From contig SICL01000002.1 of the NCBI GenBank assembly GCA_009691445.1, forward strand, positions 63 to 64,062: 64,000 nucleotides of DNA. The letters run 5' to 3'. How positions within the stretch are numbered: the first letter of the stretch is position 1; each line of letters starts with the position of its first letter. The position numbers and the translations under genes are program-made. Below are positions 31,070 to 60,832 of this stretch, one piece after another. The notes beneath the pieces were generated by a model. It was not told the origin of the DNA and did no database searches. It saw nothing but the letters and a program-made list of their open reading frames with translations. Source of the DNA: Candidatus Taenariivivens baikalensis. Its GTDB lineage: Bacteria; Omnitrophota; Omnitrophia; Omnitrophales; Aquincolibacteriaceae.

Positions 31070-31073
31070 AAAT

Positions 31074-32147: not shown

Positions 32148-32151
32148 GGGC

Positions 32152-43482: not shown

Positions 43483-44532
43483 TCAGATTTCACGCGAACC
43501 TCTGCTAATCTTTGCGTTTGGATCACTGGTTAAGTAGTTATTTTCATAATCTTCTGCCATTTGTTCCAGAATTTTACGGTAAAAATCCGAAACTTGGTAT
43601 TCCTGATATCGGTTATCAACGATTTTGCGCTGTTGTACCCAGTAAGTTGACGGAAGGATTCGCGGGATATTCATGTTTTTGAACATCGTGGCTGTTCGGG
43701 ATGTTTCACAGATTCCTAATTTTTTTTGTACAGTTGTCCAGTCATCGTTTGGGGTTACGACAAATCTTTCAAAAGGGATGATCATCACCTTGTTTTGGAA
43801 TGAGGGCCGTTGAGTATAAAATTCCTTAGCTTGATGAAGAAGATGATGCGTCACAAGAATTGCTTGTTCAAAGGGATTGGCCGCTAAATAATCATCGGCA
43901 ATTTCAAGGGCAAACCAAGGTATTATTTTATCTTTTACTAATAAAACCTGCTGAAATTCTCTAGGATCATTACCGAGGCGTTTATTCCAGTTGCCTTTAG
44001 TCCAGTTTTCCACAAGCCAAAATGGATGTCTGATCGGTACAACCATGAGTTTAAGACGATGATGGAAGGTGTCAAACATAAGCTCAGAGATTCCGAAAAG
44101 ATAATGGGTCATCAGCACTAAAATGGGTTTTTCTAATTTTATTTTATCAACAATAGCTTCTCCTTCTGTTTTGTCTTCGAGCCTCAAACGATATTTTTCC
44201 TCCTGAAGATTTGCTTGTATGCTGCTTAGGTCAGAAGCTCTAAGGTTAATGTGTCTTCCTATCATAAGGTGGTAAAGATCCATATCAGCATAGGTTTTGA
44301 GGAATGTCGCTGCCACAGATCGATTCATGAATCCGTAATGGTCCGCCATGCACAAGTAGTCATAATTATAATTTGCGATCCATGCCTCACATCGATCCAA
44401 GCTGCTGATAAGTGGTGCTAGCAGGGATTTTCCGGAGCCTGAAAATCCATCAATAACAACAATATCCTCGGCAAGTTGCAGAGGGCGAATCAAGACTGCT
44501 TCACTTAGGGGATTTGAAATCTTGGGACTCAT
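43483..44532 (-). CDS. P-loop NTPase-fold protein (Walker A GFSGSGKS; kinase- or sulfotransferase-like)
   Basis: 349 aa. VVIDGFSGSGKSLLAPL Walker A resembles APS-kinase/zeta-type kinases. No further family assignment possible. Confidence 0.4.
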   Translation of the reverse strand: MSPKISNPLSEAVLIRPLQLAEDIVVIDGFSGSGKSLLAPLISSLDRCEAWIANYNYDYLCMADHYGFMNRSVAATFLKTYADMDLYHLMIGRHINLRASDLSSIQANLQEEKYRLRLEDKTEGEAIVDKIKLEKPILVLMTHYLFGISELMFDTFHHRLKLMVVPIRHPFWLVENWTKGNWNKRLGNDPREFQQVLLVKDKIIPWFALEIADDYLAANPFEQAILVTHHLLHQAKEFYTQRPSFQNKVMIIPFERFVVTPNDDWTTVQKKLGICETSRTATMFKNMNIPRILPSTYWVQQRKIVDNRYQEYQVSDFYRKILEQMAEDYENNYLTSDPNAKISRGSREI

Positions 44533-44533
44533 G

Positions 44534-45352
44534 TTAACTTTTTTGTAGTGTTGACAGATTTTTTGATGGATTCAATTTAAATTTTTCCCATTGAGCCAAG
44601 TCAAATCCTGATTCGATCAAGGATTGGCGGGATTTTTCCAGACCGTCTCCGATAAAGTTAAATAGATGGGCCGTGGCCACGGCATCGACTCGTGGATCTT
44701 TTAACCCCTGGGCAAGGTGATGATAGTTACCGGCACCGCCCGCAAGGATCACCGGAATGGTTAGAGTCTCCGGGATTTGATCCAATAAGCCTAAGTCGTA
44801 ACCCTGTCCTGTTCCATCCCGATGAATCGAATTCAAATAAAGTTCGCCAATAGGATAGTTTGATATTTTTTGGAGCCAGGTACTCAGGGAATCATTGACC
44901 GGCTTACTTCCATTTTCGACCATGATTCGGTATCCGGACTCATGGAGGGAAGCATCAACGGAGGCAATAATGCATTGCTGTCCAAATTCTACAGCCAGTT
45001 GGTTGAGAAGGATGGGGTTTTCAAAGATCGGAGTGTTGATAACGATCTTATCTGCGCCAGACCGGAGAAGTTGTTTAGCTTGCTCAACGGAGCGGATTCC
45101 TCCCCCTGCGGCTATCGGCATAAAGCAACCCTCCGTGAGCGACTTGAGATGTTCACAAAAAAGATCAAATTGGCGAGCGTCTCGTGAAACATCAAGGACG
45201 ATCAATTCATCGATCGAAAATGCCACTCGATAAAAGTTATAATTCTTTTGCAGCCACCGTAGATCACCCACGCGCTGCAGACGAAAATTACGGCTTAACA
45301 TGAATGAGCCGTGATCAAATAAGAGTGTAAAAATAACACGTTTTTTAAGCAT
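44534..45352 (-). CDS. HisF-like cyclase subunit of a glycan-modifying imidazole-glycerol-phosphate-synthase-like complex (WbuY/PseudoHisF type)
   Basis: The start MLKKRVIFTLLFDHG is chosen at 45352. IAAGGGIRSVEQAKQLLRSGADKIVINT is a HisF-type (beta/alpha)8 phosphate-binding motif. It sits next to a HisH-like gene and a WbpG-like amidotransferase. Confidence 0.8.
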   Translation of the reverse strand: MLKKRVIFTLLFDHGSFMLSRNFRLQRVGDLRWLQKNYNFYRVAFSIDELIVLDVSRDARQFDLFCEHLKSLTEGCFMPIAAGGGIRSVEQAKQLLRSGADKIVINTPIFENPILLNQLAVEFGQQCIIASVDASLHESGYRIMVENGSKPVNDSLSTWLQKISNYPIGELYLNSIHRDGTGQGYDLGLLDQIPETLTIPVILAGGAGNYHHLAQGLKDPRVDAVATAHLFNFIGDGLEKSRQSLIESGFDLAQWEKFKLNPSKNLSTLQKS

Positions 45353-45354
45353 GG

Positions 45355-45981
45355 TTAAATCTCTAGAAAATTTCCTAATAAAATCAAACCGTTCGTTTGG
45401 CTTTTTTCCGGATGAAATTGAGTGCCGCATATATTGTTCACCTCAAATGCAGCGAGGAACTCAGTGCCATAGTTGCAAGTCCCCCAATTCCCTTTCAGTT
45501 CTGCGCCAAGCATGCGATAGGAGTGAACAAAGTAAAAATCAGCGGCAGGAGGCAATGAGCGAAATAATCCTGAGCATTTGGCAAAATGAACCGTATTGAA
45601 TCCCACATGAGGGATTTTATTTCGGTTGAGTTCTTGCGGTGAAAATTTATCAACGGCATTCGAAATCAATCCAAGGCCTTTCGTCTTACCATCTTCTGAA
45701 CCGGAAGCACCCAAAAGCTGCATGCCTAGACAGATTCCTAATATTTTTGCACCGCGAACTTTAACAGCCTCTAAAATCGCCTGTTCAAGACGCGTGCGTC
45801 TCAAGGTTTCCATTGCTTTTCTAAAGGAGCCTACGCCCGGTAAAATTAAGAAATTCGCCTCGCGAACTTGATCAGGATCGCTGCTTAAGAGGGATTGTCT
45901 TCCCAAGTAGCGGACCGCACTCTGAACTGACCAAAGATTGCCCATTCCATAATCGATCGTAACAATCTTTTTTTGTGACAT
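45355..45981 (-). CDS. HisH-like class I glutamine amidotransferase subunit
   Basis: 208 aa. IVTIDYGMGNLWSVQSA...ILPGVGSF plus the catalytic Cys region GICLGMQLL. Confidence 0.85.
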   Translation of the reverse strand: MSQKKIVTIDYGMGNLWSVQSAVRYLGRQSLLSSDPDQVREANFLILPGVGSFRKAMETLRRTRLEQAILEAVKVRGAKILGICLGMQLLGASGSEDGKTKGLGLISNAVDKFSPQELNRNKIPHVGFNTVHFAKCSGLFRSLPPAADFYFVHSYRMLGAELKGNWGTCNYGTEFLAAFEVNNICGTQFHPEKSQTNGLILLGNFLEI

Positions 45982-47126
45982 TAGAGGGTTGTAAAAACCG
46001 GGATCCAGCGCCCATTTTCTTTTTTAAATAAATTTTTATTTGCCCATTGATCGAGCACAGCATCAAATTCATTTTGAGTCATCTGATAATAATCCAGATA
46101 GGTTTCAATGAATTCTTCAGGATAATGTCCATCATAAAGACGAACGAGATTGATTGCTTGGTCACGAGTCATCGCGCCGCGACGGATTTCGATTCCTGCA
46201 TCTTGGGTGGCTCTTCCAAAACCAAATTTAAGATACATCATATAAGTGTGAAGGGCATATAAAGCCTGATCATTCTGGGCAAAATTTGTAAACGTGCCGG
46301 TATTATTTTCAGTAGCCTCCTGCAAACCACAATGTTCTTTCGCCGTCAAATAGTTCTGATAAGGGTCCCAGGATTCAAAATAAGACCAGTGGGTGATTTT
46401 TAGATCCTTGCCTTTCAGTTCCCGGTCGGATGGGAATGAAAAGAAGTACAATTCAGCGTCGCTTAGGCCGCACGAGTTAAGTATCCTTTCATGGCCGCCC
46501 TCGAGATAAATCCTTTTCATGTAAGCAATGTCATAAACGGGATGATTTTTCGATTCCGAAGATCCGCCATATTCCACCTCACCATCCTCTCCATAAAACA
46601 GAAGCGGGATATTTAGATTCACCGCGAGACGGACGACGGCGGCTTGCACCGCCACTAACCAGCCATAATAGGGGAATCCTTTCTCGATAAATCCCTGACG
46701 ATTCAGGATGCGCATAACTTTTGGATTGGGATTGATCTGAATATGGTTATGCCCGCTCTCGATATAATTTCGAAGATTTTTATTCCCCAAATCGAGCGAC
46801 AAAGCAGGGGTCACAGTAATTGCCAAAGGATTCATTCCATGGTTATGCTTGAGCTGATATGAAACATAAGAGCCATCTTTTCCTCCGCTGACAGGGACGA
46901 CACAATCAAAAGTTCCTGATGAAGATTTGTACTGATTGAGGATTTCAGTCAGCTCATTTCTCCGCGAATCCCAATTAAGATTCCTTTTTTCCTCCATCCA
47001 TTGGCAGGCATTGCACCATCCCCTGTCATCAAAGGTAATGCGCGGACGGGTTGACATGTTGAGACAGTTTTTGCACCAAAAAACTTTACTGCTGGAATGA
47101 GTCATAAACTTTTCCTGATTAAGCAT
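45981..47126 (-). CDS. N-acetyl sugar amidotransferase (WbpG/PseA/LegA-like, PP-loop ATP pyrophosphatase)
   Basis: 381 aa. N-terminal CKNCLNMSTRPRITFDDRGWCNACQW zinc-ribbon and PP-loop VPVSGGKDGS. This is the hallmark of acetamidino-forming amidotransferases. Confidence 0.85.
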   Translation of the reverse strand: MLNQEKFMTHSSSKVFWCKNCLNMSTRPRITFDDRGWCNACQWMEEKRNLNWDSRRNELTEILNQYKSSSGTFDCVVPVSGGKDGSYVSYQLKHNHGMNPLAITVTPALSLDLGNKNLRNYIESGHNHIQINPNPKVMRILNRQGFIEKGFPYYGWLVAVQAAVVRLAVNLNIPLLFYGEDGEVEYGGSSESKNHPVYDIAYMKRIYLEGGHERILNSCGLSDAELYFFSFPSDRELKGKDLKITHWSYFESWDPYQNYLTAKEHCGLQEATENNTGTFTNFAQNDQALYALHTYMMYLKFGFGRATQDAGIEIRRGAMTRDQAINLVRLYDGHYPEEFIETYLDYYQMTQNEFDAVLDQWANKNLFKKENGRWIPVFTTL

Positions 47127-47147
47127 AATTTTAAAAGAGGTTCAGTG

Positions 47148-47966
47148 TTACCAAACCGTTAATCCCCCATCAACAATAAGGTTGTGCCCTGTGACATAAC
47201 TTGAGGCACCGGAAGCAAGATAGATAAGAGCACCCACCATTTCTTGAGGATGAGCCATTCGCCCTAGAGGAACACGGTCGGAATATTTCTTTTGAAACGT
47301 TTTATTTTGCCCGCTAAAGACTCCTCCAGGTGTAAGCGTATTGACGCGAATTTTATGAGGAGCCAAGTGGGTTGACAAATATTTTGTTAGAGCAATCACG
47401 CCGCCCTTTGAGGCAGAGTACACGGCGGGATTGTTAATCTCTTGATTGAGATAAAACGACCCTTGATAGGTTCGCGGATCATGTGACGAAAGGCCATAAA
47501 TGGACGCCGTTTGTATAATTGAGCCGCCTTTTTCTTGCTTTATCATTTGGCTACTGACGGCCTGCGCGACGAGGAACATTGCATCCAGATTGATCGCCAT
47601 AATTTCCCGCCATGTTTCTAGAGAGTAGCGTTCAAATTTCTCAAAAAACGCATGGGCGTCTTTTGATTTTCCGGCGGCATTATTATGGAGGATGTGAACG
47701 GTTTTAAAGGTTTTAAGGATTTGTCGGAGCATTTCGTTTACATTTTGCGGTTGTGTAATGTCGCAGCCCACGCCTAAAGCTTTTATTTTATATTTTTGAT
47801 TCAATTTTTTTGCTAGAGAAACCGCCTCTTTTTCGCGGATATCCACAATCGCCACATGAGATCCGCGGGCAGCCAAGGCTTCACAGAAATGCTTCCCTAA
47901 GATCCCGCAGCCGCCAGTGACAATGGAAGTTTTCCCTTGAAGGCTAAACAGGTCCTTAAAACTCAT
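47148..47966 (-). CDS. Short-chain dehydrogenase/reductase (PtmA-like)
   Basis: The start MSFKDLFSLQGKTSIVTGGCGILG is chosen at 47966. It has the classic SDR TGxxxGxG and YxxxK. Its position matches ptmA of the Campylobacter legionaminic acid locus. Confidence 0.75.
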   Translation of the reverse strand: MSFKDLFSLQGKTSIVTGGCGILGKHFCEALAARGSHVAIVDIREKEAVSLAKKLNQKYKIKALGVGCDITQPQNVNEMLRQILKTFKTVHILHNNAAGKSKDAHAFFEKFERYSLETWREIMAINLDAMFLVAQAVSSQMIKQEKGGSIIQTASIYGLSSHDPRTYQGSFYLNQEINNPAVYSASKGGVIALTKYLSTHLAPHKIRVNTLTPGGVFSGQNKTFQKKYSDRVPLGRMAHPQEMVGALIYLASGASSYVTGHNLIVDGGLTVW

Positions 47967-48690
47967 GGTAATTCCCCTGGTTTTGATGCTGACGATCCAT
48001 GAGAAGTTTGACCACTTCAAAATCCAGATCATGATCAATATCCACGGAACGCTCAGGCGGCATTTCGTAAAGCAATGTGTCGGAATAAAAAATAGCAGGA
48101 TTTTCAATAAAGCGATTCCGTTTCCAGACATAAATTGACGCATTCATGTCGTAACATGCTGGTGAATCTTGCCGGCGGACAACCGGTGTCGGAGTATTTT
48201 TGGAAAGACGGACAAAGCCCTCCGAATTATTTTCTACCAGATTAAAATAGGGCGAATGCCGGGATCGTGCCGCAGTGATGACGTTAGAAACTTTGCGCGA
48301 GTCAAAGAGCCGAACCGCATGATGGATATCCTGAATCGTCCTCAAAGGGGATGTGGCATCCAGATCAACGATCGTTTCGTAAGCATACTTCTTGATTTTT
48401 TCAATTTCAAGTACCGCGTGCCGGATTGCAGGAAGTTTGGATGCCGTATCAGTCGCCATTTCTTCGGGACGCTTCAGGAAGTAATCCGCTCCCCATTCGC
48501 GGCTAACCTTGAGAATATCATCTGAATCACTACTGACAACAACGGCATCAAAAAGTTTTGAATCTTTAGCTTGTTGAAGTGTGTGAGCGATCAAGGGTTT
48601 CCCTTGAATCAGCATAATGTTTTTATTTTTGAGGCCTTTGGAACCGCCTCGTGCACAGATCGTGCAAATTCGCTTTATCGGTGTATCCAC
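47956..48690 (-). CDS. CMP-nonulosonate (acylneuraminate/legionaminate) cytidylyltransferase, NeuA/LegF/PtmB family
   Basis: 244 aa. ICARGGSKGLKNKN is the NeuA-family signature. Confidence 0.85.
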   Translation of the reverse strand: MDTPIKRICTICARGGSKGLKNKNIMLIQGKPLIAHTLQQAKDSKLFDAVVVSSDSDDILKVSREWGADYFLKRPEEMATDTASKLPAIRHAVLEIEKIKKYAYETIVDLDATSPLRTIQDIHHAVRLFDSRKVSNVITAARSRHSPYFNLVENNSEGFVRLSKNTPTPVVRRQDSPACYDMNASIYVWKRNRFIENPAIFYSDTLLYEMPPERSVDIDHDLDFEVVKLLMDRQHQNQGNYHEF

Positions 48691-49586
48691 TTGAAGTCCT
48701 TTGCTGCTTCTTCAGCCGCTTCAATCATTTTTACGACATCTATTCCCTCTTCAAAAGAGCATAGCGATTCTGTGTTTCCGGAGAGCACGGCTTCGTGCTG
48801 CCGAAGATAGGTGTGATTTTTATCCATGGGATACTGCTCAATCTGATCATCGGTCTCAAGTGTATTCTGGACTAAATCGGCTTTGAACGTCTGATTGTCT
48901 GTTTGGATGATAATCTCACGCCGGGATTTTCTATCCAGGTAGTTCATTTGTAAAGAGACCAAAGGACATCGCCTTGTTTTTAGCAGGAGAGAATAAGCAT
49001 CGTCACTATCTAGGGTGTTATCGCTGAAGCGCCCTCCGACTGCCGTTAAAGCCTGCCAACCCCCAAGAAGCCAGTTCAAATAGTCCAGTTCATGACTTAA
49101 ATCCCGAAGGACACCCCCGCCGCCTGCTCGGGTTGCGGAGTATCCCAATCGCCCATCAGGCCTCCAGGTGGAAATATGTTTTCCGACGTAGGCTTGAACT
49201 TGAATAATATTTTTAGAGGCGGCAAGGATCATCTTGAGTTTTTGAAGAATGGGATGAAAGCGCAGGTTATAGGCTGTATAAATATAAGTGATCGAATGCT
49301 TTGGGATTGTCACCCTATTGGCAAAAAGGGGCTTTTCGATTAAAACCTTTCCCCTAAAGGACGTATCCGCTAAGGTTTTGAATGAATCAAAATGAGAGCG
49401 GGTATCATTTGCGATCACGACATAATCCGGATTAAAATTCTTGAGACACTCACCGAGCGAAGTAAATAAAGAATCATCATCAGAGTGGTGACGACTGATC
49501 ACTGCGACGTGACAGCCAAGTTCTTTAAGGCAGTTTGCATGACGCACTCCAATGGATCCGTATCCAACCACAGCGGCTTTGATCAT
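48675..49586 (-). CDS. Gfo/Idh/MocA-family NAD(P) oxidoreductase (PtmF-like)
   Basis: 303 aa. N-terminal Rossmann AVVGYGSIGVRH and a Gfo/Idh/MocA C-terminal domain. Confidence 0.75.
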   Translation of the reverse strand: MIKAAVVGYGSIGVRHANCLKELGCHVAVISRHHSDDDSLFTSLGECLKNFNPDYVVIANDTRSHFDSFKTLADTSFRGKVLIEKPLFANRVTIPKHSITYIYTAYNLRFHPILQKLKMILAASKNIIQVQAYVGKHISTWRPDGRLGYSATRAGGGGVLRDLSHELDYLNWLLGGWQALTAVGGRFSDNTLDSDDAYSLLLKTRRCPLVSLQMNYLDRKSRREIIIQTDNQTFKADLVQNTLETDDQIEQYPMDKNHTYLRQHEAVLSGNTESLCSFEEGIDVVKMIEAAEEAAKDFKWIHR

Positions 49587-49589
49587 CGA

Positions 49590-50663
49590 TTAATCTTTGA
49601 CGGAGGGTGCGGGTGCTTTAAAGATTTCCGCAAACTCACCATTCGCACGGACGAGATCCTCAACGCGGCCGACATCAAGCCAATATTCGCGCAGTGGAAA
49701 TGCCGCTGTTTCTTTTTTGTTTTGGATTAAGATTTCAAACAAATTTGGCATATCGAAATACTCGTTTTGAGGAATCAAAGAAATAGCGTCTGGTTCAAAG
49801 GCGTAAATTCCGGCATTGACAAAAAATTTGTGAATAGGTTTTTCGTCGATAGCTTGAATCCGTTGACGGTCGAGCTGAACGACTCCAAAGGGAACCTGGA
49901 AGTCATATTCCCGGACGCACATGGTGCCGAGGGCTTCATGTTCCCTGTGGAATTGGAGAAGCTGCCGAAAATTAATTTTTGTCAACAAATCACCATTCAT
50001 GACAATAAAGGTTTGTTTCGGGGTTTCAGGAAGCAGCGCAAGAGCACCGGCAGTTCCCCGGCGTTCATGTTCATGGAGATAAGTGATATCGGCTCCCCAC
50101 TTGCTACCATTTCCAAAATAATGACGAACCATTTCATCCTTATAATGAACTGAAATAAAAAAACGATGAAACCCCTGTTCAATAAAATTTTGCAGAATGG
50201 TTTCTAAAATAGGCTTGTTTCCCACCGACAAAAGGGGTTTTGGGCAATCATCGGTGAGAGGCCGCAGGCGAGTTCCAAGTCCCCCCGCCATTAAAATGAT
50301 CCAATTGTGGACGGGATCGACTTTTAATAATTCATCAATGATTTTCACATCAATAATCTGGCCTTCAGAGTTAAGAATTGGAAGTTGATGAATTTCACGC
50401 TTTTGCATTGTTTCCCGCGCTAAAATTGGATCATCGCTCATCGCAAGAACGGCCGGGTTATGTCGCATAATTGACTCAACGGGTGCGGAAAGAGGAACTC
50501 CCTTAAGCATGCCCCGGCGAACATCCCCATCCGTGACCGTGCCGCAGAGTTTATTCATGGCATCCACGACAAAAGCGATCTGAATGGAGCCGGCGTCAAT
50601 TTTAGCGATAGCATCGGCAATGGATGCCCCGCTAGCAACAAGTGCTTTCTTCCAGTCCGGCAT
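49590..50663 (-). CDS. CBS-domain plus nucleotidyltransferase fusion (PtmE-like sugar-1-phosphate guanylyl/nucleotidyltransferase)
   Basis: The start MPDWKKAL is chosen at 50663. It has an N-terminal CBS pair, then ILMAGGLGTRLRPLTDDCPKPLL NTP-transferase motifs. The architecture matches PtmE of the GDP-GlcNAc-based legionaminic acid pathway. Confidence 0.75.
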   Translation of the reverse strand: MPDWKKALVASGASIADAIAKIDAGSIQIAFVVDAMNKLCGTVTDGDVRRGMLKGVPLSAPVESIMRHNPAVLAMSDDPILARETMQKREIHQLPILNSEGQIIDVKIIDELLKVDPVHNWIILMAGGLGTRLRPLTDDCPKPLLSVGNKPILETILQNFIEQGFHRFFISVHYKDEMVRHYFGNGSKWGADITYLHEHERRGTAGALALLPETPKQTFIVMNGDLLTKINFRQLLQFHREHEALGTMCVREYDFQVPFGVVQLDRQRIQAIDEKPIHKFFVNAGIYAFEPDAISLIPQNEYFDMPNLFEILIQNKKETAAFPLREYWLDVGRVEDLVRANGEFAEIFKAPAPSVKD

Positions 50664-51292
50664 TAAGCAGTCCTCTTCATTAAATTTTGTGATGCTGATG
50701 AAGCAATGTTGCGAAGGATCGTTGAACCTGCTTTGATAAGGGTGTTGGGGCCGATGTGCCTTTCCTGAATGATCACAGAACCGCTTCCGATGAGCGAGTT
50801 TTCCCCAACAATGACTCCACCGCATAAAGTAACCCCAGGTGCAATATGAACATGAGGCCCAATCTTGCAATCATGATCGATCGAGGATCGGGTATTAATA
50901 ATGGAATTTTCCCGAATAATGGTTCCAGGCTGAACAACGGTTCCGGCCATGATCTGTACCCCCTCACCTATTTGGACATCCGAAGCAATCACGGAAGAAG
51001 GATGGACAACGGAAGCAAAGTTATAACCCAAGGATTTAAAATAAGTAAAAATTCTTTTGCGATGGTCGCTGACCCTAATGGTGCCAAGCCCATTGACTAA
51101 ACGAATTTTTGAATTTGTAAATTCAAGAACGGCGTTATCATCACCCAGGACACTTAATCCTGAAATTTTTTCACCGGCTTTATGTGAAGGGTCAGTGATC
51201 CCAATTATTCTTTCTTTGCGTAGTTTTAACGTCTCAATCAAGACCCTCGCATGCCCCCCACCCCCAAGAATGATAATCGGTGGTTGTTTCAT
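50663..51292 (-). CDS. PglD/NeuD-family hexapeptide-repeat sugar N-acetyltransferase (LegH-like)
   Basis: The start MKQPPIIILGGGGHARVLIE is chosen at 51292. It has an N-terminal Rossmann-like segment plus a left-handed beta-helix (IGEGVQIMAGTVV...GENSLIGSGSVI). Confidence 0.8.
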   Translation of the reverse strand: MKQPPIIILGGGGHARVLIETLKLRKERIIGITDPSHKAGEKISGLSVLGDDNAVLEFTNSKIRLVNGLGTIRVSDHRKRIFTYFKSLGYNFASVVHPSSVIASDVQIGEGVQIMAGTVVQPGTIIRENSIINTRSSIDHDCKIGPHVHIAPGVTLCGGVIVGENSLIGSGSVIIQERHIGPNTLIKAGSTILRNIASSASQNLMKRTA

Positions 51293-52362
51293 AAAGTCAC
51301 CAAGTCGTCTTTGCAAAAGTTTTTGAGAGAAGGACGTCCCAGGAGTTCCCAATATTTATAGGGACTGAGACCCAAGCCGGGTCTTTTGATCGCAAGATTA
51401 GATGATGAAAACAAATCCCCTTTTTTAATCGAGGAGGATGCCACAATGCTTTTTCGGATGGCCGATATGTTTTTAGTTTCACACAAAGAGGGTTTTTTTT
51501 GACCGTCGCCTAGGGCGTATTCAACAGCGCGTATTCCATCGATCATTTGTTTGAGTTCATTAGGTTCAAGAGAAGCAAAGTGATCCGGTCCGGAAAGTCT
51601 TCGATCCAGTGTAAAGTGTTTCTCAATAATGGTTGTTCCCAGAGCGGCTGCGGCGATGGGCACTGCACCTCCCAAGGAATGATCGGACAGTCCGGTGGAA
51701 AGGCTAAAGATTTTTTGCAAAGTCATCATGGCACGTAAATTAATGGCGTGATAAGGAGCTGGATACTCCGTGGTGCATTGAAGCAAAGTCACTTTTTCTT
51801 TCAGAAGCCCCTTTCCTTCCCGAGAATCGTAATAAGATTTAAACTTTCGTTCTGATGGGTCTTCCTTGGCTGAAGAAAGAAATCCAAAGGCTAGCACCGA
51901 GAGTGCTTTTTTAATTTCCTGAAGGGTTGACATTCCCGTTGATAAAATAATAGGCAACTTTTTTCGGGCGACGTGAAGTAAGAACGGAGCGTTTGTAATT
52001 TCTCCTGATGAGATTTTAAAACGCTTAACCCCAAGTTCATATAAAAAGTCTGCACTGGCCTCATCAAAAGGCGTTGAGAGAAATTCGATTTTTTGCTTTG
52101 TGCATTCCCGGAATAAAGCTTGATGACTTCGATCCGTTAACTCCAGGCGCTTAATCATATTCCATTGCGATGAACCCCTAGTCTGTTTCATTTGGTACGA
52201 TGCTTTGGGGGTTGTTTTGGTCAGAAGCGTCTCAGCTCGGAAAGTTTGAAACTTGACCGCGTCTGCGCCCGATGATTTTGCGCAACGCACCATTTCAAGG
52301 GCTCTTTCCACATTCCCATTATGATTGACGCCGGCCTCGGCAATAACATATACGTGTTTCAT
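51289..52362 (-). CDS. Nonulosonic acid synthase (NeuB/LegI/PseI family) with C-terminal SAF domain
   Basis: 357 aa. Starts MKHVYVIAEAGVNHNGNVERALEMV, has the SGADAVKFQTF motif, and ends in an antifreeze-like domain. Confidence 0.9.
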   Translation of the reverse strand: MKHVYVIAEAGVNHNGNVERALEMVRCAKSSGADAVKFQTFRAETLLTKTTPKASYQMKQTRGSSQWNMIKRLELTDRSHQALFRECTKQKIEFLSTPFDEASADFLYELGVKRFKISSGEITNAPFLLHVARKKLPIILSTGMSTLQEIKKALSVLAFGFLSSAKEDPSERKFKSYYDSREGKGLLKEKVTLLQCTTEYPAPYHAINLRAMMTLQKIFSLSTGLSDHSLGGAVPIAAAALGTTIIEKHFTLDRRLSGPDHFASLEPNELKQMIDGIRAVEYALGDGQKKPSLCETKNISAIRKSIVASSSIKKGDLFSSSNLAIKRPGLGLSPYKYWELLGRPSLKNFCKDDLVTL

Positions 52363-53027
52363 CGGGTCTCACGAAGAATCATAAACGCTTCAGCTGCTTT
52401 AACACCGCATTCGGATCCTCGAAGCAGCGCGAGCGCTTTCATTGTATCGGCAGAACGAGGAAACGGATGTTTTCCCCATTCACTTTGATACGTTTTCATG
52501 GCGTTTATTTTTTTTTGCAGGAACGAGGTGATATTGATATATAAATTAGGAACAAATGATTTTTGAGTCGGATCAAGCTTGAAACCTGTTTCAGAAAGGG
52601 TTTCATAGGTATAGATGTTTTTAACCGAAGGAGCACGAAACCATTTTGCTGCAGTCAGCACCGCGTCAAATGCAGCCCGGTGATCACTATGAGCGTCTCC
52701 CGGGAAAGGAACAAATAAGGTATCCGGTTTGATTTCATTGATAACTTTTTTGATTTTAAAGATCAAATCTGATTTTGGAATCTGATCGAGGGAACAAGGA
52801 GAGAATCCGAGATCCCAGGATGAATTAAATCGATAGAATTTTTCGATGGCTTTAATTTCTTTCTCCCGTCGTGAGATTGAAGAAACGGAATAGCCTGAAC
52901 GCGGACTCATTTGTGTAACGCGAATCCAATGGATTCTTTTTCCTTCTGCCCGAAGCCGAAAAAGAGTTCCTCCGCAGCCAAGAGTTTCATCATCGGGATG
53001 AGGAGCGATAACTACAATATTTTTCAT
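52359..53027 (-). CDS. PIG-L/LmbE-family N-deacetylase
   Basis: The start MKNIVVIAPHPDDETLGCGGT is chosen at 53027. AHPDDE is the family zinc-binding signature. Confidence 0.8.
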   Translation of the reverse strand: MKNIVVIAPHPDDETLGCGGTLFRLRAEGKRIHWIRVTQMSPRSGYSVSSISRREKEIKAIEKFYRFNSSWDLGFSPCSLDQIPKSDLIFKIKKVINEIKPDTLFVPFPGDAHSDHRAAFDAVLTAAKWFRAPSVKNIYTYETLSETGFKLDPTQKSFVPNLYINITSFLQKKINAMKTYQSEWGKHPFPRSADTMKALALLRGSECGVKAAEAFMILRETR

Positions 53028-53923
53028 AGATACTCTCCCGCTTTCGGGCATTGAGGAATGTCGTGGCTGAGGATTTGCAGAGCGGATGCGCCGCCGCATT
53101 TTATGGTGAAATGCTTTTTGGAAGCATTAAGAATTTTACCGGGCTCGCAATTATCCTTTAAATTTGTAACTACTTGAGATCTCCAGACAGCAAATTTCTT
53201 TCCGTTGTATCGGCACACAGCTCCAGGATAAGGTTTGGCCAGTGCTCGGATGAGATTGTAAATCGTTTCGGCGGACATTCTCCAATCAATTGCACCGTCC
53301 CCTTCCGATCGTTTTCTCCAAGTATTTCCGTGATCAGCAGGTTGTTTCCCACGTTTAAATTCCCCAGAAGCGAGTGCTAAGCTAAAAGTGGGTATTTGCT
53401 GTTTTGCAATTTTAAGGAGACGCTGATAGAGATCATGCGCATAATCGGTCTTTGAGATTTTTACATTTTTTTGGTCAAGAATATCCCCTGTGTCCGCTTT
53501 CTCATCCATGAAAAAGAAAGTCGATGCGGTTTGTTTTAAGCCGAGGGCTAAAGCCCAGATAATCGGATGCCGTCCTCGATTATAGGGTAGTTTGGCAGGA
53601 TGGTATCCAATGACCCCCAGGCGCGGAATTTCCAAAATTGTTTTTTGCAGCAACCACGACCATCCGAAACAATAAATCACATCAGGGCATATTTCATGAA
53701 GCCATTTCACAAGATTTTCTTCGTTGTGCTGGTCTGCAAGGAAATAAGGGATTTTATGGCGGGCTGCAACGGGCTGAAGTGAAGTGAAATCGCTGTTAAA
53801 ACTGGATGCTTTACGTGTGACAACTCCGGCCACATGATAATGCTTATTTTTTTGCTTCAGAAGATCTCGGAGGCATGACTCGCTGAATTGGACACAACCC
53901 ATAAAAACTATCTTCATCGGCAA
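53024..53923 (-). CDS. Formyltransferase (Fmt/ArnA-N-like, N10-formyl-THF-dependent sugar N-formyltransferase candidate)
   Basis: 299 aa. The formyl_trans_N fold with GVIGYHPAKLPYNRGRHP (HxSLLPxxRG-like catalytic region). Confidence 0.75.
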   Translation of the reverse strand: MPMKIVFMGCVQFSESCLRDLLKQKNKHYHVAGVVTRKASSFNSDFTSLQPVAARHKIPYFLADQHNEENLVKWLHEICPDVIYCFGWSWLLQKTILEIPRLGVIGYHPAKLPYNRGRHPIIWALALGLKQTASTFFFMDEKADTGDILDQKNVKISKTDYAHDLYQRLLKIAKQQIPTFSLALASGEFKRGKQPADHGNTWRKRSEGDGAIDWRMSAETIYNLIRALAKPYPGAVCRYNGKKFAVWRSQVVTNLKDNCEPGKILNASKKHFTIKCGGASALQILSHDIPQCPKAGEYL

Positions 53924-55077
53924 CCTGCCGGAACGTAAAATTTTTTCTTGAGCAAATCCGCACCAAGAGGAAAATATTTTATTTCCTTTTTAATCATCAT
54001 GGATGCCCGGCCCTTGCCGTAAAGGAAATCGGGTTTTACTTTTTTTGATCGTATTAAACCCGATTGAATCGATTGTTTAATTTTTCCTGAATTTTCAGGG
54101 CAATCGATGACCGTTTTAGCGCGCAATCTTCCTTTTTGCCGGTCACCGATATTGATAGAGATTTTCCCCATAAAAGGCGCTTCAATAATTCCGCTGGATG
54201 AATTTCCAACCAGAAGAGTGGCGTGGTGCATCAGGCTTAAGTAGATTTCTTGACCAAGCGACGTGAAAGCAAAAGTACGAGATTTTTTTTCCACATACTC
54301 ATCTATCAATTGATTAATCGAAAGGCCCAGGGGGTCTGTATTGCTTTTAGTAATAATAATGGTCCCTCGCCGAAAATGATTTAGGGCTTTAAAGAGTTCC
54401 TGGGCGGAACGTAACGACTTCTTCCCTTCCAAAGTGACGGGATGATAAGTGACGAGAAAAAGAGGGCTGTGGATTTTTATTTTCAGACAACTTTCAAGTT
54501 CCTGGAGAGTAAGCGCTTTCGTCTTCTTGATGTGGTCAAGTCCCGGAGCCCCATAATTAAATACCCGGTTGGGTTCCTCACCCATTTGGATGATGTGTTT
54601 TCGATAAGTTTCCGAGGCGGCAAAATGAAGATGAGCCATTTTTGTGATCGAATGGCGAATGGCTTCATCGATAAGCCCCTCGGTGGATTCTCCCCCGTGA
54701 ATATGGGCGATGGGGATACGGGCAATCATTGCCGCTTGAGCCGCTGCAAATATTTCATAGCGGTCCCCTAAAATAACGAGCAGATCCGGATTTAATTTTT
54801 TGAGTCCTTTCGCGAAGGAATCCACTCCAATGCCCAGGGATTTACTGACAGCTTCAGGGGAATCGGTTGCTAAGGGCATCCTGGCCTTGTAGGCGATTGA
54901 AAAGCCATCTTTTTCAATCTTTTCAACCGTGCGACCAAATTGTTTTAAGAGATGCGCGGCACCCGCGATCACCTGGAGTTTCAAAGAAGAGTCATTCTGG
55001 ATTTCTTTCATAATCCAATAGAGATGTCCATAATCAGCGCGTGATCCCGTGACGACGCAAATCTTTCTCTTTTTCAT
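53914..55077 (-). CDS. UDP/GDP-N-acetylglucosamine 2-epimerase, hydrolysing (NeuC/LegG family)
   Basis: 387 aa. Starts ICVVTGSRADYGHL, has HIHGGE, and matches NeuC throughout. Confidence 0.85.
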   Translation of the reverse strand: MKKRKICVVTGSRADYGHLYWIMKEIQNDSSLKLQVIAGAAHLLKQFGRTVEKIEKDGFSIAYKARMPLATDSPEAVSKSLGIGVDSFAKGLKKLNPDLLVILGDRYEIFAAAQAAMIARIPIAHIHGGESTEGLIDEAIRHSITKMAHLHFAASETYRKHIIQMGEEPNRVFNYGAPGLDHIKKTKALTLQELESCLKIKIHSPLFLVTYHPVTLEGKKSLRSAQELFKALNHFRRGTIIITKSNTDPLGLSINQLIDEYVEKKSRTFAFTSLGQEIYLSLMHHATLLVGNSSSGIIEAPFMGKISINIGDRQKGRLRAKTVIDCPENSGKIKQSIQSGLIRSKKVKPDFLYGKGRASMMIKKEIKYFPLGADLLKKKFYVPAGCR

Positions 55078-56249
55078 AGAAGAACACCGCTTGGGATATT
55101 AATAAGACGTGTTTCAATATCTTCGGCTGTCGATAAATCCATTCTCGGACATTCCGAGTACATGGGAAGGCGGTGCATGAGTGTCCAGCACGGACGTGTA
55201 CTCATTCCATTTTGATTTGTGATTTCAAGCAGCGGATTGCGCATTGACGCTTGATCGGCATCAAGAAGAAGTGCATTGAGCCAGTAATTGCTTTGAGATT
55301 CCTTAGGTTCGGTAAAAAAATGGATTCCGGATAAGCCTTCAAAAGCTTTTTGATAGCGTCCTGCAAGCTCTCGTTTATTTTTTAGAAAAAGAGGTATTTG
55401 TTCGAGCTGGGCACAACCAAGGGCTGCATTGATATTAGGAAGGCGGTAATTAAAACCTATTTCATCATGGGCGAAAAAATAGCCGTGAGGAATCCGAGCC
55501 GTTGTGGTGATATGTTTCAATTTTTGTGCGAGTTTTTCATTGTTTGTCAGAATGGCCCCGCCGCCTCCGGTGGTGATGATTTTGTTTCCATTAAAACTTA
55601 AAATCGTCAGATCGCCCCAGCTTCCGGTGTGCTTTCCCTGGTAATAAGAGCCAAGGGATTCTGCGGCATCTTCGATAAAAATAAGATTGTATTTTTTACA
55701 GAGCGTCTGAATGAGATCCGCCCGAAAGGGATGACCGAAGATATGAACACCGATTAAAGCTTTGATCGGATTTCCAGTCTTACGATTAACAAGCTGGCCA
55801 TTCTTAATCTGAGCAATAGTTTCAAGATACTGATCGAGTTTTTCCGGATCAACACCCAGGGTTTTTTGTTCCGAGTCAATCAAATGAGGAATGGCTCCCA
55901 AATAGCTTACCGCATTCGCTGTGGCGACAAAGGTGAGGGTGGGAATCAAGACTTCGTCGTTTGGAGCAATTCCCGAAATTTTGAGTGCCGCATGGAGTGC
56001 CGCCGTTCCATTAACAACTGCCACGGCCTTTTTTATTCCCGTAAATTGGACAAGATCATTTTCAAACCGATCTACATAAGTTCCAACCGATGAAACCCAC
56101 CCCGTGTCCAAACATTCTTTTACGTAATCCCACTCCTTGCCCGCAAAATGGGGTGCGTGAAGAGGGACGGGTAAAGATGATTCAGGAATACAACTTTTGA
56201 TTTTACGAAAAACCATTTCAAGATCTAATTCGATTTTAAGTTTTGTCAT
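55074..56249 (-). CDS. DegT-family aminotransferase (LegC/PglE-like, NDP-4-keto-6-deoxy-sugar 4-aminotransferase)
   Basis: 391 aa. AVAVVNGTAALHAAL, FNGNKIITTGGGG and DegT fold. Confidence 0.85.
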   Translation of the reverse strand: MTKLKIELDLEMVFRKIKSCIPESSLPVPLHAPHFAGKEWDYVKECLDTGWVSSVGTYVDRFENDLVQFTGIKKAVAVVNGTAALHAALKISGIAPNDEVLIPTLTFVATANAVSYLGAIPHLIDSEQKTLGVDPEKLDQYLETIAQIKNGQLVNRKTGNPIKALIGVHIFGHPFRADLIQTLCKKYNLIFIEDAAESLGSYYQGKHTGSWGDLTILSFNGNKIITTGGGGAILTNNEKLAQKLKHITTTARIPHGYFFAHDEIGFNYRLPNINAALGCAQLEQIPLFLKNKRELAGRYQKAFEGLSGIHFFTEPKESQSNYWLNALLLDADQASMRNPLLEITNQNGMSTRPCWTLMHRLPMYSECPRMDLSTAEDIETRLINIPSGVLL

Positions 56250-56252
56250 GAG

Positions 56253-57263
56253 TTAAAGATTGTAAAGATACGATTTGTATTGAGCTAAATTATTCCGATC
56301 AGAAAACCAATGAATGGTTTCCTGAAGCCCTTGAATTAAACCTTCTTTGCCTTCCGATTGCGGTTTCCACCCGGTCAAACGCTGTACCTTCGTCGCGTCT
56401 GCACAAAGACGTTTCACCTCACTTTTTAAGGGGCGCAAACGTTCGGCATCATTTTCCAGTTCAAGGGGCGTATGCATAAGTTCTGAAATAAGTTGCGCAA
56501 GATCCCCGATAGAAATTTCAAAGCCGGTCCCCAGATTCAAAATTTCACCGGTTGTGGCAGGCGATTCTGCGGCTGCTATAAACCCACGAACGGTATCCAA
56601 GACGAAATTAAAATCACGCGTAGGATGAAGGGCCCCGAGTTTGATTTTCTGTTTCCCATTTGCAAGCTGGGTAATGATCGTGGGGATTACTGCCCTCGCA
56701 GATTGCCGGGGGCCATAGGTATTGAAGGGTCTTACGATGGTGACAGGTAGATCAAAGGATTCATGAAATGACATGGCAATCTGATCTGCGCCTATTTTTG
56801 TGGCGGCATACGGTGATTGTCCATGCAAAGGATGTTTTTCCGTGATGGGAACCGTTTGCGCGCTTCCGTAAACCTCGCTTGTTGAGGTGTGGATGAATTT
56901 TTTAATACCCATGTCTCGCGCAGCCTGCAGTAAGTTGAGTGTTCCCTTGATGTTGGTGTCCACATAGGCATCGGGAGAATGATAGGAAAATGGAATTCCG
57001 ATAAGGGCGGCTAAATGGAAGATATAGTCACAGCCGTGAAGCGCTGTCCTTACTCCGTGAGGATCTCGAATGTCCCCCATAAAGATTTCGATTTTGTCTT
57101 GAATTTCCGGCTCTAAATGGTCTAACCAGCCCCAACTATTGAACGAGTTATAAAAAACGAAGGCACGGATATCACATCCGGAACGGACTAATGCTTCTGT
57201 TAAATGGGACCCGATAAAGCCGTCCGCACCGGTCACCAGTATTTTTGAATTTTTGAGATTCAA
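56253..57263 (-). CDS. NAD-dependent NDP-sugar 4,6-dehydratase/epimerase (LegB-like extended SDR)
   Basis: 336 aa. VTGADGFIGSHL, YAATK, and dTDP-glucose-4,6-dehydratase-like layout. It is the first biosynthetic step gene, adjacent to the aminotransferase. Confidence 0.75.
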   Translation of the reverse strand: MNLKNSKILVTGADGFIGSHLTEALVRSGCDIRAFVFYNSFNSWGWLDHLEPEIQDKIEIFMGDIRDPHGVRTALHGCDYIFHLAALIGIPFSYHSPDAYVDTNIKGTLNLLQAARDMGIKKFIHTSTSEVYGSAQTVPITEKHPLHGQSPYAATKIGADQIAMSFHESFDLPVTIVRPFNTYGPRQSARAVIPTIITQLANGKQKIKLGALHPTRDFNFVLDTVRGFIAAAESPATTGEILNLGTGFEISIGDLAQLISELMHTPLELENDAERLRPLKSEVKRLCADATKVQRLTGWKPQSEGKEGLIQGLQETIHWFSDRNNLAQYKSYLYNL

Positions 57264-57278: not shown

Positions 57279-57512
57279 TTAATCTTCGTCATGGATCCAT
57301 CGCCGGGCTTTGTTGTAAGCAATCCCGACTTTATTTTCCAATTTGGGTGAAAGGATACGTAAAAGTTCTTTTCCCATAATGCGGTATTGTTTTCCCACTT
57401 TAGCGGAGCGAATCAGGCCTTTTTTAATCATGCGCGCAAGTGTGCTGGTACTGACTTTGAGGATTTCTTCAGTTTCGGCTAAGGTATATACTTCGTTTTC
57501 TCTAATTTCCAT
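57279..57512 (-). CDS. Helix-turn-helix DNA-binding protein, excisionase/MerR-like (HTH_17) family
   Basis: The start MEIRENEVYTLAETEEILKVSTSTLARMIKKGLIRSAKVGKQYRI is about 77 aa. This is a classic excisionase-family HTH. Confidence 0.7.
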   Translation of the reverse strand: MEIRENEVYTLAETEEILKVSTSTLARMIKKGLIRSAKVGKQYRIMGKELLRILSPKLENKVGIAYNKARRWIHDED

Positions 57513-57617
57513 AGGTGCTCCATGTGGTAAGGTGCCACATAGTACCATTAGCCCTATTTAAGTGTCAATACCTGTCAAAATATAACATCAAGAGAGAGCA
57601 GGTAAATAGCCGTCCCA

Positions 57618-59877: not shown

Positions 59878-60822
59878 TCATGATTGAGTTTTGAGATACC
59901 AATCAATGGTATTCTTAAGGCCATCCGCGAGTGCTGTTTTTGCTTTGAAGCCAAAAAAATGTTCTGCGCGTGAAATATCAACACATCTCCGCGGCTGCCC
60001 ATTAGGCTTGGAATCGTCCCATTCGATATCGCCTTGAAATCCTGTCATTTTAACAATCATTTCTGTGACTTGACGGATTGAAATTTCCTGGCCGGTTCCC
60101 AGGTTTACGGGTTCTTTTCCGTTATAGTGAAGCAAGCCAAGGACAATTCCTTCAGCCGCATCCTCAGCATAAAAAAATTCACGTGTGGGTGAACCATCGC
60201 CCCAGCAGATAATTTTGTTATCTCCTTGTTTTTTAGCCTGGATGCATTTTCGAATAATTGCAGGAATGACATGCGAAGTATGAGGATCAAAATTATCCCT
60301 AGGTCCATACATATTCACCGGCATCAAATAAATACTGTTCAGACCGTATTGTTCCCGGTAAGTTTGAGCTTGAACGAGTAAAAGTTTTTTGGCAATCCCG
60401 TAGGGGGCATTTGTTTCTTCTGGATAGCCATTCCAGAGATCTTCTTCCTTGAAAGGAACCGGGCAGAATTTCGGATAGGAGCATATGGTTCCAAGGATCA
60501 AGAGTTTTTCTACCGGCACATGGCGGCAGGATTCGATCAGTTGAGATCCCATCATCAGATTTTCATAAAGAAATTTTCCGGGATTGACCTGATTGGCTCC
60601 GATACCTCCGACACTCCCTGCGGCATGAATGATATAGTCAGGACGCTGATCTTTAAGGAGGCGAACAACCGCTTCTTTTTCGATTAGATTGTAGTCTTTG
60701 CTGCGGGGTACAAAGATTTTTTTCGCGCCTTTTTCTCGAAGCTTTTCCACAATAAAGCTTCCCAAAAAACCAGCCCCACCCGTCACTACAATCACTTTAT
60801 CTTTTAAATCTGGGGCACTCAT
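59878..60822 (-). CDS. fcl: GDP-L-fucose synthase-like NDP-4-keto-6-deoxyhexose 3,5-epimerase/4-reductase (Fcl/WcaG family)
   Basis: The start [25 protein letters not shown] is chosen at 60822. It has Fcl-type motifs ([27 protein letters not shown]). Confidence 0.8.
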
Positions 60823-60832
60823 CGGGACATCC

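Follow-up and report, generated by a model that had tools for sequence, protein, structure and literature searches.

A probable operon for tailored CMP-legionaminic acid in Candidatus Taenariivivens baikalensis combines a deacetylase-formyltransferase pair with an amidotransferase trio

A stretch of 64,000 nucleotides (nt) from Candidatus Taenariivivens baikalensis (contig SICL01000002.1, positions 63 to 64,062; hereafter, the window) was analysed with respect to 14 intact genes found among its open reading frames (ORFs) on the minus strand, from 57263 to 44534, in the order legB-legC-legG-fmt*-pigL-legI-legH-ptmE-ptmF-legF-ptmA-wbuX-hisH-wbuZ. In this array, genes for the synthesis of activated legionaminic acid (Leg) were combined with two accessory modules: a pair encoding a formyltransferase homologue, designated Fmt*, and a PIG-L-type deacetylase, and a trio encoding a WbuX-type amidotransferase with its HisH-like and WbuZ/HisF-like partners. 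The region is probably one operon for a tailored cytidine monophosphate (CMP)-legionaminic acid that serves the adjacent glycan locus, which resembles those for lipopolysaccharide (LPS) or O antigen. The gene identities, the coupling within the modules and the fact that both belong to Leg clusters were observed directly.

The novelty ascribed to this locus by the first-pass annotation was overstated; both modules are common accessories of Leg operons. What is new is confined to two points: the two common modules have not been described together before, and the Fmt* family has an atypical active site. To this may be added the usual retention of LegH, which speaks for re-acylation of N5 by the pair. 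As far as the window is concerned, the outcome is mainly a solid annotation and not a discovery.

Organization of the gene array

The array extends from the TTG start codon of legB (57263) to the stop codon of the hisF-like gene (44534). The gene families proposed for it by the first-pass annotation all agreed with the results of profile searches, and only the start codons had to be refined, which was done from profile alignments and from the gene call publicly available for this contig. The refined starts changed six genes (fmt, pigL, legH, ptmE, ptmA and wbuZ). For legF, the GTG codon at 48690, giving a protein of 244 amino acids (aa), appears to be the better start, as this protein retains the ARGGSKG motif and is aligned by the PseF profile from position 1; the protein of the public call (219 aa) begins downstream of this motif and thus loses it.

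Six successive junctions, from legC to ptmE, were found to overlap (by 4 nt in five cases and by 1 nt in one), which indicates co-translation, and no gap between neighbouring genes of the array was larger than about 20 nt. Chance is not an issue for this observation of 14 genes. The run of genes on the same strand is wider than the array and stretches from about 61.8 kb down to 29.1 kb, and the guanine plus cytosine content is even across the window, at about 0.43-0.47. Because promoter and terminator scans of the 43-62 kb interval gave the same counts as shuffled sequence, they were uninformative as to the limits of the operon. The window gave no matches in scans for Rfam families and tRNAs.

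Legionaminic acid core pathway

LegB and LegC were recognized by NCBIfam models specific for Leg, each above its curated cut-off. LegB, an NAD-dependent nucleoside diphosphate (NDP)-N-acetylglucosamine (GlcNAc) 4,6-dehydratase (56253-57263), matched TIGR04180 with 514.4 bits (cut-off 475) and the PseB model with just 79 bits; its TTG start preserves the Rossmann motif KILVTGADGFIGS. LegC, a pyridoxal phosphate-dependent 4-aminotransferase (55074-56249), scored 534.7 bits with TIGR04181 (cut-off 420) and 224.7 bits with PseC, below the cut-off of 423.5. The gene at 53914-55077 encodes LegG, a hydrolysing 2-epimerase of NDP-N,N'-diacetylbacillosamine (diNAcBac), which matched TIGR03568 (NeuC/LegG) with 447 bits. 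Its top solved relative (5xvs/5zlr, 313 bits) is an Acinetobacter GDP/UDP-N,N'-diacetylbacillosamine 2-epimerase (hydrolyzing; GDP and UDP, guanosine and uridine diphosphate), a proven diNAcBac hydrolysing 2-epimerase, and the human GNE epimerase scored 163 bits.

The nonulosonate synthase LegI (NeuB family; 51289-52362) gave 453.9 bits with TIGR03569 (NeuB_NnaB; cut-off 399.65), a model that spans NeuB and LegI alike and does not separate them, and 275 bits with PseI, below its cut-off of 340. When it was compared with synthases encoded beside LegB/LegC elsewhere, the scores were 284-404 bits, against 185 bits for the solved PseI and 158 bits for the solved NeuB of N. meningitidis; its identity to the products of annotated pseI genes on plasmids was 31-34%. 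The distinction of LegI from a sialic acid NeuB would rest on the pathway context.

LegH, an N-acetyltransferase of the PglD/NeuD type (50663-51292), was assigned at the family level (TIGR03570, 204 bits; cut-off 160.8), and its gene occupies the position of legH in the Plesiomonas cluster. PtmE (49590-50663), which combines a CBS pair with a sugar-1-phosphate nucleotidyltransferase, was identified by its domains, size and position: the long ORF contains a KpsF-type CBS region (residues 77-174) and an NTP-transferase region (192-413), and the protein of 357 aa agrees with Plesiomonas PtmE in size and gene position. Its domain architecture and gene order would fit the guanylyl-transferring enzyme of the GDP-sugar branch. 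PtmF (48675-49586) has the N- and C-terminal Pfam domains of GFO_IDH_MocA oxidoreductases, and the order ptmE-ptmF-legF-ptmA is the same as in Plesiomonas. LegF (PtmB), the CMP-nonulosonate synthetase (47956-48690), is a CTP_transf_3 protein assigned at the family level (131 bits with PseF, below the cut-off of 205.7), and PtmA (47148-47966) matched the family of short-chain dehydrogenases/reductases.

The earlier proposal of a Leg-type pathway supplied by the GDP-GlcNAc route was therefore upheld, as LegB and LegC lie above the equivalog cut-offs, the pseudaminic PseB, PseC, PseI and PseF models all fail, and PtmE, PtmF and PtmA show the expected domain architectures in the canonical order. 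The Leg assignment of the locus is sound. The only steps for which no gene was found in the cluster are the housekeeping mutase and the glucosamine (GlcN) N-acetyltransferase, as in Plesiomonas.

It had been stated that the gene order closely follows the Campylobacter ptm/leg locus. A better fit, and an exact one, was provided by the clusters of Plesiomonas shigelloides 302-73 and Vibrio fischeri and the elg cluster of E. coli, in which the order legB-legC-legG-legI-legH-ptmE-ptmF-legF-ptmA is identical to that of the window (PMC4481668). The proteins of the Plesiomonas cluster are similar in size to those of the window, and mutants of this cluster lose Leg-glycosylated flagella (flagellin) (PMC4481668). 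The window differs in having fmt*-pigL between legG and legI and in having the amidotransferase trio at the place taken in Plesiomonas by a small GlmU-like acetyltransferase. Moreover, flagellar genes surround the Plesiomonas cluster, whereas the surroundings in the window are those of an LPS/O-antigen-type locus. C. jejuni shares the GDP-GlcNAc route (PtmE/F/A) and LegB, C, H, G, I and F with the window, but its gene order is different and its legH is located elsewhere. It is also without the deacetylase and the formyltransferase, and it has PtmH, which methylates the amidine.

The fmt*-pigL pair

The PIG-L and formyltransferase pair that had been noted at 52359-53923 was borne out by domain matches and refined to 52359-53917. 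Fmt* (53024-53917, 297 aa) is a two-domain homologue of ArnA/Fmt-like formyltransferases that contains PF00551 (Formyl_trans_N, 87.8 bits) and PF02911 (Formyl_trans_C, 76.3 bits), and its top solved relative is the N-terminal domain of ArnA (E = 2e-34). With this domain and with PseJ (PDB 6ci2), it shares the Formyl_trans_N fold and the catalytic His and Asp, and with ArnA and Fmt, it also has the C-terminal domain in common. An Asn-His-Asp triad is characteristic of ArnA, Fmt, GART and the sugar N-formyltransferases. When Fmt* was aligned to ArnA, the N-L-H of ArnA stood opposite G-Y-H, so that the position of the Asn is taken by Gly104, while His106 and Asp142 are kept.

This substitution is a property of the family. 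The motif G-[Y/F]-H-P-x-x-L-P-x-N-R-G was found in all of the 120 best Fmt* homologues (48-55% identity) and in 81 of the 84 copies from the loci that were fetched. His106 and Asp142 are invariant, as is Asn113, which lies in the same loop seven residues past the His, and the SLLP motif of the folate loop is changed to A-x-L-P. Because the triad Asn is Gly104, Fmt* was not classed as a canonical N-formyltransferase, though it may work like one. Judging from the motif, one idea is that the catalytic Asn was relocated from N-x-H to L-P-x-N-R-G in this family, and Fmt* may transfer a formyl group from N10-formyl-tetrahydrofolate to a sugar amine. The earlier designation of a formyltransferase in the locus thus stands as regards both domains and the fold; it does not extend to the canonical catalytic Asn, which is replaced by Gly. 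Fmt* also differs from canonical sugar N-formyltransferases, which act on an amine made by an aminotransferase, in that its partner is a deacetylase.

This partner, PIG-L (52359-53027, 222 aa), is a zinc de-N-acetylase of the PIG-L/LmbE family (PF02585, 78 bits; cut-off 28.2). In the window protein, the zinc-binding/catalytic motifs APHPDDE and HSDH are intact, and H-x-D-H was present in 82 of 83 homologues. PIG-L enzymes of known substrate remove the 2-N-acetyl group of GlcNAc-type sugars. The closest solved relatives of the window protein are TT1542 and diacetylchitobiose deacetylase, and those of its solved relatives for which a substrate is named all de-acetylate the 2-acetamido group of GlcNAc.

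The occurrence of the pair was studied by a genome scan for Fmt* with one genome per species, in which 225 relatives were found and the best 80 were examined. The pair counts are based on the 79 genome loci with a strong Fmt* match, a number that is a lower bound for species-level genomes. PIG-L was present in 77 of these 79 loci, and in 74, its gene was directly downstream of fmt*; LegG was encoded directly upstream of fmt* in 59 loci, and LegI was present in 60. Cultured strains that carry the pair but not the trio include Metabacillus idriensis DSM 19097 and Brevibacillus gelatini DSM 100115. The hosts included Alpha-, Beta-, Gamma- and Zetaproteobacteria as well as Bacillaceae, Paenibacillaceae, Nitrospirae, Desulfobacterota, Bacteroidota, Leptospira, Prochlorococcus, Planctomycetes and candidate phyla. 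The search of a plasmid collection returned no member of the Fmt* family (top match 33% identical). The fmt*-pigL pair is a tightly coupled module, and since it recurs beside LegG/LegI in varied hosts, it is a conserved accessory module of Leg-type clusters and not an oddity of one locus.

Nitrogen served by the pair

Comparison of the loci argues that fmt*-pigL re-acylates N5, which bears the acetyl group inherited from GlcNAc, and not the amine made by LegC. LegH was kept in 38 of the 45 complete Fmt*/PIG-L loci. In two others, a canonical N-x-H formyltransferase with the motif I-N-C-H-A-G-x-L-P-F-Y-R-G was found in place of LegH, with Fmt*/PIG-L kept: at 12611-13540 in the locus of Psychromonas aquimarina ATCC BAA-1526 (L059) and at 6947-7843 in that of a betaproteobacterial metagenome-assembled genome (L065). 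Since LegH is retained or replaced by a canonical enzyme, the pair would serve a nitrogen other than that of LegC. For these two loci, the gene content predicts a di-N-formyl legionaminic acid. The possibility that Fmt* is a replacement for LegH, as PseJ is for PseH, was considered and rejected, both because of the 38 of 45 loci with LegH and because L059 and L065 exchange LegH for the canonical enzyme while keeping Fmt*/PIG-L.

In several Bacillaceae (Metabacillus, Ectobacillus, Aeribacillus and Peribacillus; L003/L004, L006, L007, L011 and L014), the genes form a block NeuC-Fmt*-PIGL-NeuB-NeuD-NeuA, and no LegB/LegC was found within 10 kb of it. N5 would be the sole nitrogen available in these cases, unless the missing genes lie elsewhere. 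The six-gene block may make a Neu-type sugar that bears a formyl group; alternatively, genes for the dehydratase and aminotransferase may be located elsewhere in the genome.

Formylated nonulosonates are known from clusters of related content. The first-pass annotation had mentioned N-formyl derivatives of pseudaminic acid; N-formyl Leg was also already known, as Halorubrum sp. PV6 produces 5-N-formyl-Leg (PMC6137143). In this organism, a putative formyltransferase gene (HrrPV6_1050) directly follows legG and is co-transcribed with it (PMC6137143). By description, Halorubrum differs from the window in being an archaeon, in that the sugar belongs to an N-linked glycan, and in that no PIG-L deacetylase or amidotransferase appears in the paper. 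Beside the NeuB homologue of a Halorussus plasmid, no Fmt/PIG-L pair was found.

In Ca. Kuenenia stuttgartiensis, CMP-nonulosonates that have a free amine beside a single formyl group were described and traced to a leg-type cluster in which, as in the window, a deacetylase and a formyltransferase are present among the leg genes, formyl replacing acetyl, and for which no legH is listed (SugarBase preprint, bioRxiv 10.64898/2026.04.20.719630). The order there is legB-legF-legC-deacetylase-formyltransferase-neuB-legF-legG, and no amidotransferase trio was reported; by description, the two enzymes are putative counterparts of Fmt*/PIG-L. Formylation of N5 without acetylation of N7 would yield a free amine and a formyl group as found in the Kuenenia product.

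The amidotransferase trio

The trio of HisF/HisH/WbpG-like proteins that had been placed at 44534-47126 was confirmed as a WbuX/HisH/HisF-like set, with matches above cut-off for the first two proteins. WbuX, an N-acetyl sugar amidotransferase with a PP-loop ATPase (45981-47126), scored 357.3 bits with TIGR03573 (cut-off 203.2) and 201 bits with the solved relative 8wex, and its sequence shows the PP-loop SGGKDG and, at the N terminus, a CxxC...CxxC (Cys4) motif. The HisH-like glutaminase subunit (45355-45981; TIGR01855, 208 bits; cut-off 105.4) has the triad residues of a glutaminase, Cys in GICLGMQ and both His and Glu in FHPEKS. The third gene (44534-45352) encodes the putative ammonia-channel subunit with a WbuZ/HisF-like cyclase fold, the best match of which was TIGR03572 (WbuZ), below cut-off.

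The WbuX family was named from systems of the type of E. coli O145 L-FucNAm (wbuXYZ) and Pseudomonas ManNAc3NAmA (WbpG). The substrates proposed for the WbuX, WbpG and LfnA systems are hexosamine derivatives. The chemistry of the trio, with a PP-loop amidotransferase, a HisH glutaminase and a HisF-like protein, is the same as in WbuX/WbuY/WbuZ of E. coli O145 and in the WbpG and LfnA systems of P. aeruginosa; unlike these, the WbuX subfamily of the window is tied to Leg clusters. The subfamily is highly conserved, with many homologues at 65-82% identity. In 80 metagenomic loci used for neighbourhood counts, HisH followed WbuX in 68 of 69 cases, and WbuZ followed HisH in 56 of 57. The genes upstream of WbuX were mostly ptmA, legF and ptmF, ptmA being the commonest direct neighbour (18 of 59 loci), and where the upstream flank reached 8 kb or more (23 loci), both LegI and LegG were present in 21. 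The ptm/leg neighbours and the frequency of LegI/LegG indicate that the trio is a module of Leg clusters and not a bystander acting on another sugar, and it is by association that a nonulosonate is taken to be its substrate. By analogy, the trio would be the functional counterpart of C. jejuni PtmG (Cj1324), which by description is a WbuX-type amidotransferase producing acetamidino-Leg at the CMP-sugar stage. Leg5Am7Ac, with the amidine on N5, occurs in C. jejuni (PMC5378307).

Co-occurrence of the two modules and predicted product

Both modules were found together in 11 of the 79 Fmt* genome loci and in at least five metagenomic loci as well, so that they co-occur in at least 15 loci besides the window; among the complete Fmt*/PIG-L loci, 10 of 45 had both. 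Cultured carriers are Mucilaginibacter calamicampi CCUG 63418 (L046), with the same WbuX subfamily and gene order as the window, and Formivibrio citricus DSM 6150 (L055). A specialised WbuX clade for loci with two modules was considered and rejected, as these loci were scattered through the WbuX tree, over at least five separate lineages. This scatter indicates that the pair was gained or lost repeatedly while the amidotransferase lineage remained unchanged.

The literature search yielded no description of a nonulosonate bearing formyl and acetimidoyl groups together; a precedent for a doubly tailored nonulosonate is Pse5Am7Gra in Tannerella (PMC5378307). The first-pass statement that no structure is known for such a gene set thus agrees with the literature, but the gene set itself is not unusual, given the 79 genomes and the at least 15 loci with both modules. 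A formyl group on one amine and an acetimidoyl group on the other are plausible. Leg5Fo7Ac is the likely product, which would then be amidinated to Leg5Fo7Am, the positions of the groups being predicted.

In the scheme proposed here, the core pathway is modelled on that of C. jejuni (Schoenhofen 2009, as cited in PMC4481668), and the substrates, the order of steps, the nitrogen targeted and the formyl donor are inferred. PtmF and PtmA, with a housekeeping mutase, PtmE and an N-acetyltransferase, would provide GDP-GlcNAc, which LegB would dehydrate at C4/C6; LegC would then place an amine on C4, and LegH would acetylate it. PIG-L would strip the acetyl group derived from GlcNAc (hexose N2, which becomes Leg N5), and Fmt* would formylate the freed amine, probably on the nucleotide-linked hexose, leading to Leg5Fo7Ac; formylation could also take place at a GDP-GlcN intermediate. 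After release of GDP and epimerisation at C2 by LegG, the LegG product would be condensed with phosphoenolpyruvate by LegI and converted by LegF to the CMP-sugar, CMP-Leg5Fo7Ac. In the second module, HisH would draw ammonia from glutamine, the HisF-like subunit would channel it, and the PP-loop enzyme WbuX would activate an N-acetyl carbonyl for conversion to acetamidino. With N5 formylated, the acetyl group would be left only on N7, and amidination would therefore give CMP-Leg5Fo7Am as the end product, perhaps beside Leg5Fo7Ac and Leg5Am7Ac.

Alternative explanations

Several points weigh against this scheme. The known amidines of Leg are on N5 (Leg5Am7Ac), the same nitrogen to which the formyl group was assigned. 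Fmt* is without the Asn of the catalytic triad, and the literature search revealed no characterised member of its family. The formyltransferases of Kuenenia and Halorubrum were likened to Fmt* by description, and the Fmt* homologue matches contained no archaeal or named Kuenenia member. The HisF-like protein reached 234.7 bits with the WbuZ model, below the cut-off of 299.7. Finally, the source sequence is a metagenome-assembled contig, so that the locus is known from its genes alone; the synthase model is common to NeuB and LegI, and the D-glycero-D-galacto stereochemistry is not readable from sequence.

Since the Leg amidines are on N5, the modules may compete, and a mixture of Leg5Fo7Ac and Leg5Am7Ac is the main rival to Leg5Fo7Am. 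In this alternative, which is possible but doubtful, both modules target N5 and give alternative products, either as a mixture with heterogeneity of charge and epitopes or as one product depending on conditions. All precedents found place each group on Leg N5 (C. jejuni, PMC5378307; Halorubrum, PMC6137143), so that a mixture or another placement is conceivable. Moreover, the WbuX of the window shares 65-81% identity with homologues from Leg clusters without Fmt*/PIG-L, from which a shared site preference is probable. However, the co-occurrence in at least five WbuX lineages and in 10 of the 45 complete loci is better explained if the two modules have separate substrates, and the 14 genes form a single, tightly overlapping operon. 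It is improbable that, as in Kuenenia, the amine exposed by PIG-L remains partly bare in a zwitterionic sugar, Fmt* formylating the other amine or only a fraction. The Kuenenia CMP-nonulosonates, in which a formyl group is accompanied by a free amine (bioRxiv 10.64898/2026.04.20.719630), and five of the 45 complete loci, in which neither LegH nor a substitute was detected, are in line with such an output, but the window retains LegH, and the joint presence of Fmt* and PIG-L in 77 of 79 loci, with a 4-nt overlap of their genes in the window, fits a couple that deacetylates and then re-acylates.

It is quite improbable that Fmt* is no formyltransferase at all and instead binds folate or sugar without transfer, uses another acyl donor or serves as a scaffold for PIG-L. 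This would be consistent with the replacement of Asn by Gly and of SLLP by A-x-L-P throughout a family without a characterised member, whereas the invariant His106 and Asp142, the new invariant Asn113 in the same loop, the conserved fold with both domains (E = 2e-34 with ArnA) and the presence of formylated nonulosonates where such clusters occur (Halorubrum and Kuenenia) argue for transfer. Modification by the trio of another N-acetyl sugar of the polymer, in the manner of L-FucNAm in E. coli O145 (wbuXYZ) or ManNAc3NAmA in Pseudomonas (WbpG), with chance proximity to the Leg genes, is very improbable: although the family takes its name from such systems and the window contains other genes for N-acetyl sugars, such as a WecB-type 2-epimerase (16506-17621), LegI and LegG accompany this WbuX subfamily in 21 of 23 well-flanked loci, and its neighbours are ptmA, legF and ptmF. 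A much broader proposal would see in Fmt*/PIG-L a system for re-acylating N5, uncharacterised and spread across phyla, that has a rewired formyltransferase active site and feeds the amidotransferase and possibly a sulfotransferase-fold protein and a B12-radical-SAM methyltransferase, both described below, and so leads to an unseen nonulosonate (Leg5Fo7Am, a 5-formimidoyl Leg or a sulfated or C-methylated derivative); this was considered unlikely.

Surroundings of the array

The whole window is a surface-glycan locus, with genes for an initiating transferase, for glycosyltransferases of the GT1, GT2 and GT9 types and for a Wzx-like flippase. Adjoining the array, a protein of 349 aa is encoded at 43483-44532 (minus strand), beginning 1 nt past the end of wbuZ; it contains a GFSGSGKS P-loop and had no Pfam or NCBIfam match. 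The position after WbuZ is occupied by homologues in at least 11 further Leg loci. As the word-indexed search gave five relatives, the alignment was built from the fetched loci, and homologues in it showed weak matches to Sulfotransfer_3 or Sulfotransfer_1. An AlphaFold2 (AF2) model (mean predicted local distance difference test score, pLDDT, 74.7) matched solely sulfotransferases in the PDB (CurM ST and TPST). According to this model, the protein, which lies outside the original finding, has a sulfotransferase fold and may be a third tailoring enzyme.

Upstream of legB, a small HTH_17 protein (57279-57548) is followed by a homologue of B12-binding radical-SAM C-methyltransferases (57618-59756; KedN5 family, 212 bits, below cut-off), both on the minus strand. 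A homologue of the latter (221 bits) lies after HisH in another locus (L126). C10 ulosonic acids of unexplained origin were described in Magnetospirillum (SugarBase preprint, bioRxiv 10.64898/2026.04.20.719630), and C-methylation of a nonulosonate by such a radical-SAM enzyme is an idea suggested by the homology. Further upstream on the same strand, two adjacent genes for NAD-dependent epimerases/reductases (59878-61792) were found; the first product resembles GDP-L-fucose synthase but, at 303 bits, stays below the model's cut-off of 500, and a GDP-mannose dehydratase was not observed in the window.

Between 43526 and 38521 on the minus strand, genes were found for an HMGL-like aldolase (563 aa, C-terminal half unassigned), an LdpA-like 4Fe-4S protein, an HAD phosphatase, an HpcH/HpaI aldolase and a KdsB-like cytidylyltransferase (255.7 bits; cut-off 255). 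Judged by these families, they look like a second pathway, in which pyruvate aldolases would lead to a CMP-activated keto-acid. In other loci, a cytidylyltransferase combined with HMGL (L122) or with HpcH (L099) recurs downstream of the trio. A protein of 634 aa (36597-38501, minus strand), encoded between the KdsB-like gene and the flippase gene, showed weak GT-B-type matches in its C-terminal third only and is a candidate transferase for a CMP-activated sugar. Because no solved relative of this putative glycosyltransferase was found, no nonulosonate transferase was assigned.

Further from the array, the window encodes a carbamoyltransferase and a Wzy_C/O-antigen-ligase-like protein, as well as two acyltransferases of the MBOAT type, partnered by an AlgX-like protein, and PMT_2 proteins, at 8215-10032, 10032-11357 and 29150-33567 on the minus strand and 12925-14301 on the plus strand, and the glycan is probably also carbamoylated and O-acylated. 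A CDP-3,6-dideoxyhexose set, comprising a Glc-1-P nucleotidyltransferase, a CDP-glucose 4,6-dehydratase-like protein and RfbH (712 bits), is encoded at 19742-27624 on the plus strand and suggests that the same glycan contains a modified or branched dideoxyhexose. The same interval also holds genes for an FkbM methyltransferase and a GT2 protein and a split transketolase pair.

Biological meaning

Nonulosonic acids cap bacterial surfaces, and their N-acyl groups govern surface charge, recognition by phages and lectins, and antigenicity. The acetyl group on N5 arrives ready-made from GlcNAc, and the enzymology by which N5 is diversified has so far been undefined. The comparative data indicate a widespread two-gene answer, consisting of a deacetylase and an atypical formyltransferase homologue, in at least 79 species-level genomes, Omnitrophica included. 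Cultured strains were identified in which the predicted Leg5Fo7Ac, Leg5Fo7Am and di-N-formyl Leg may be searched for directly.

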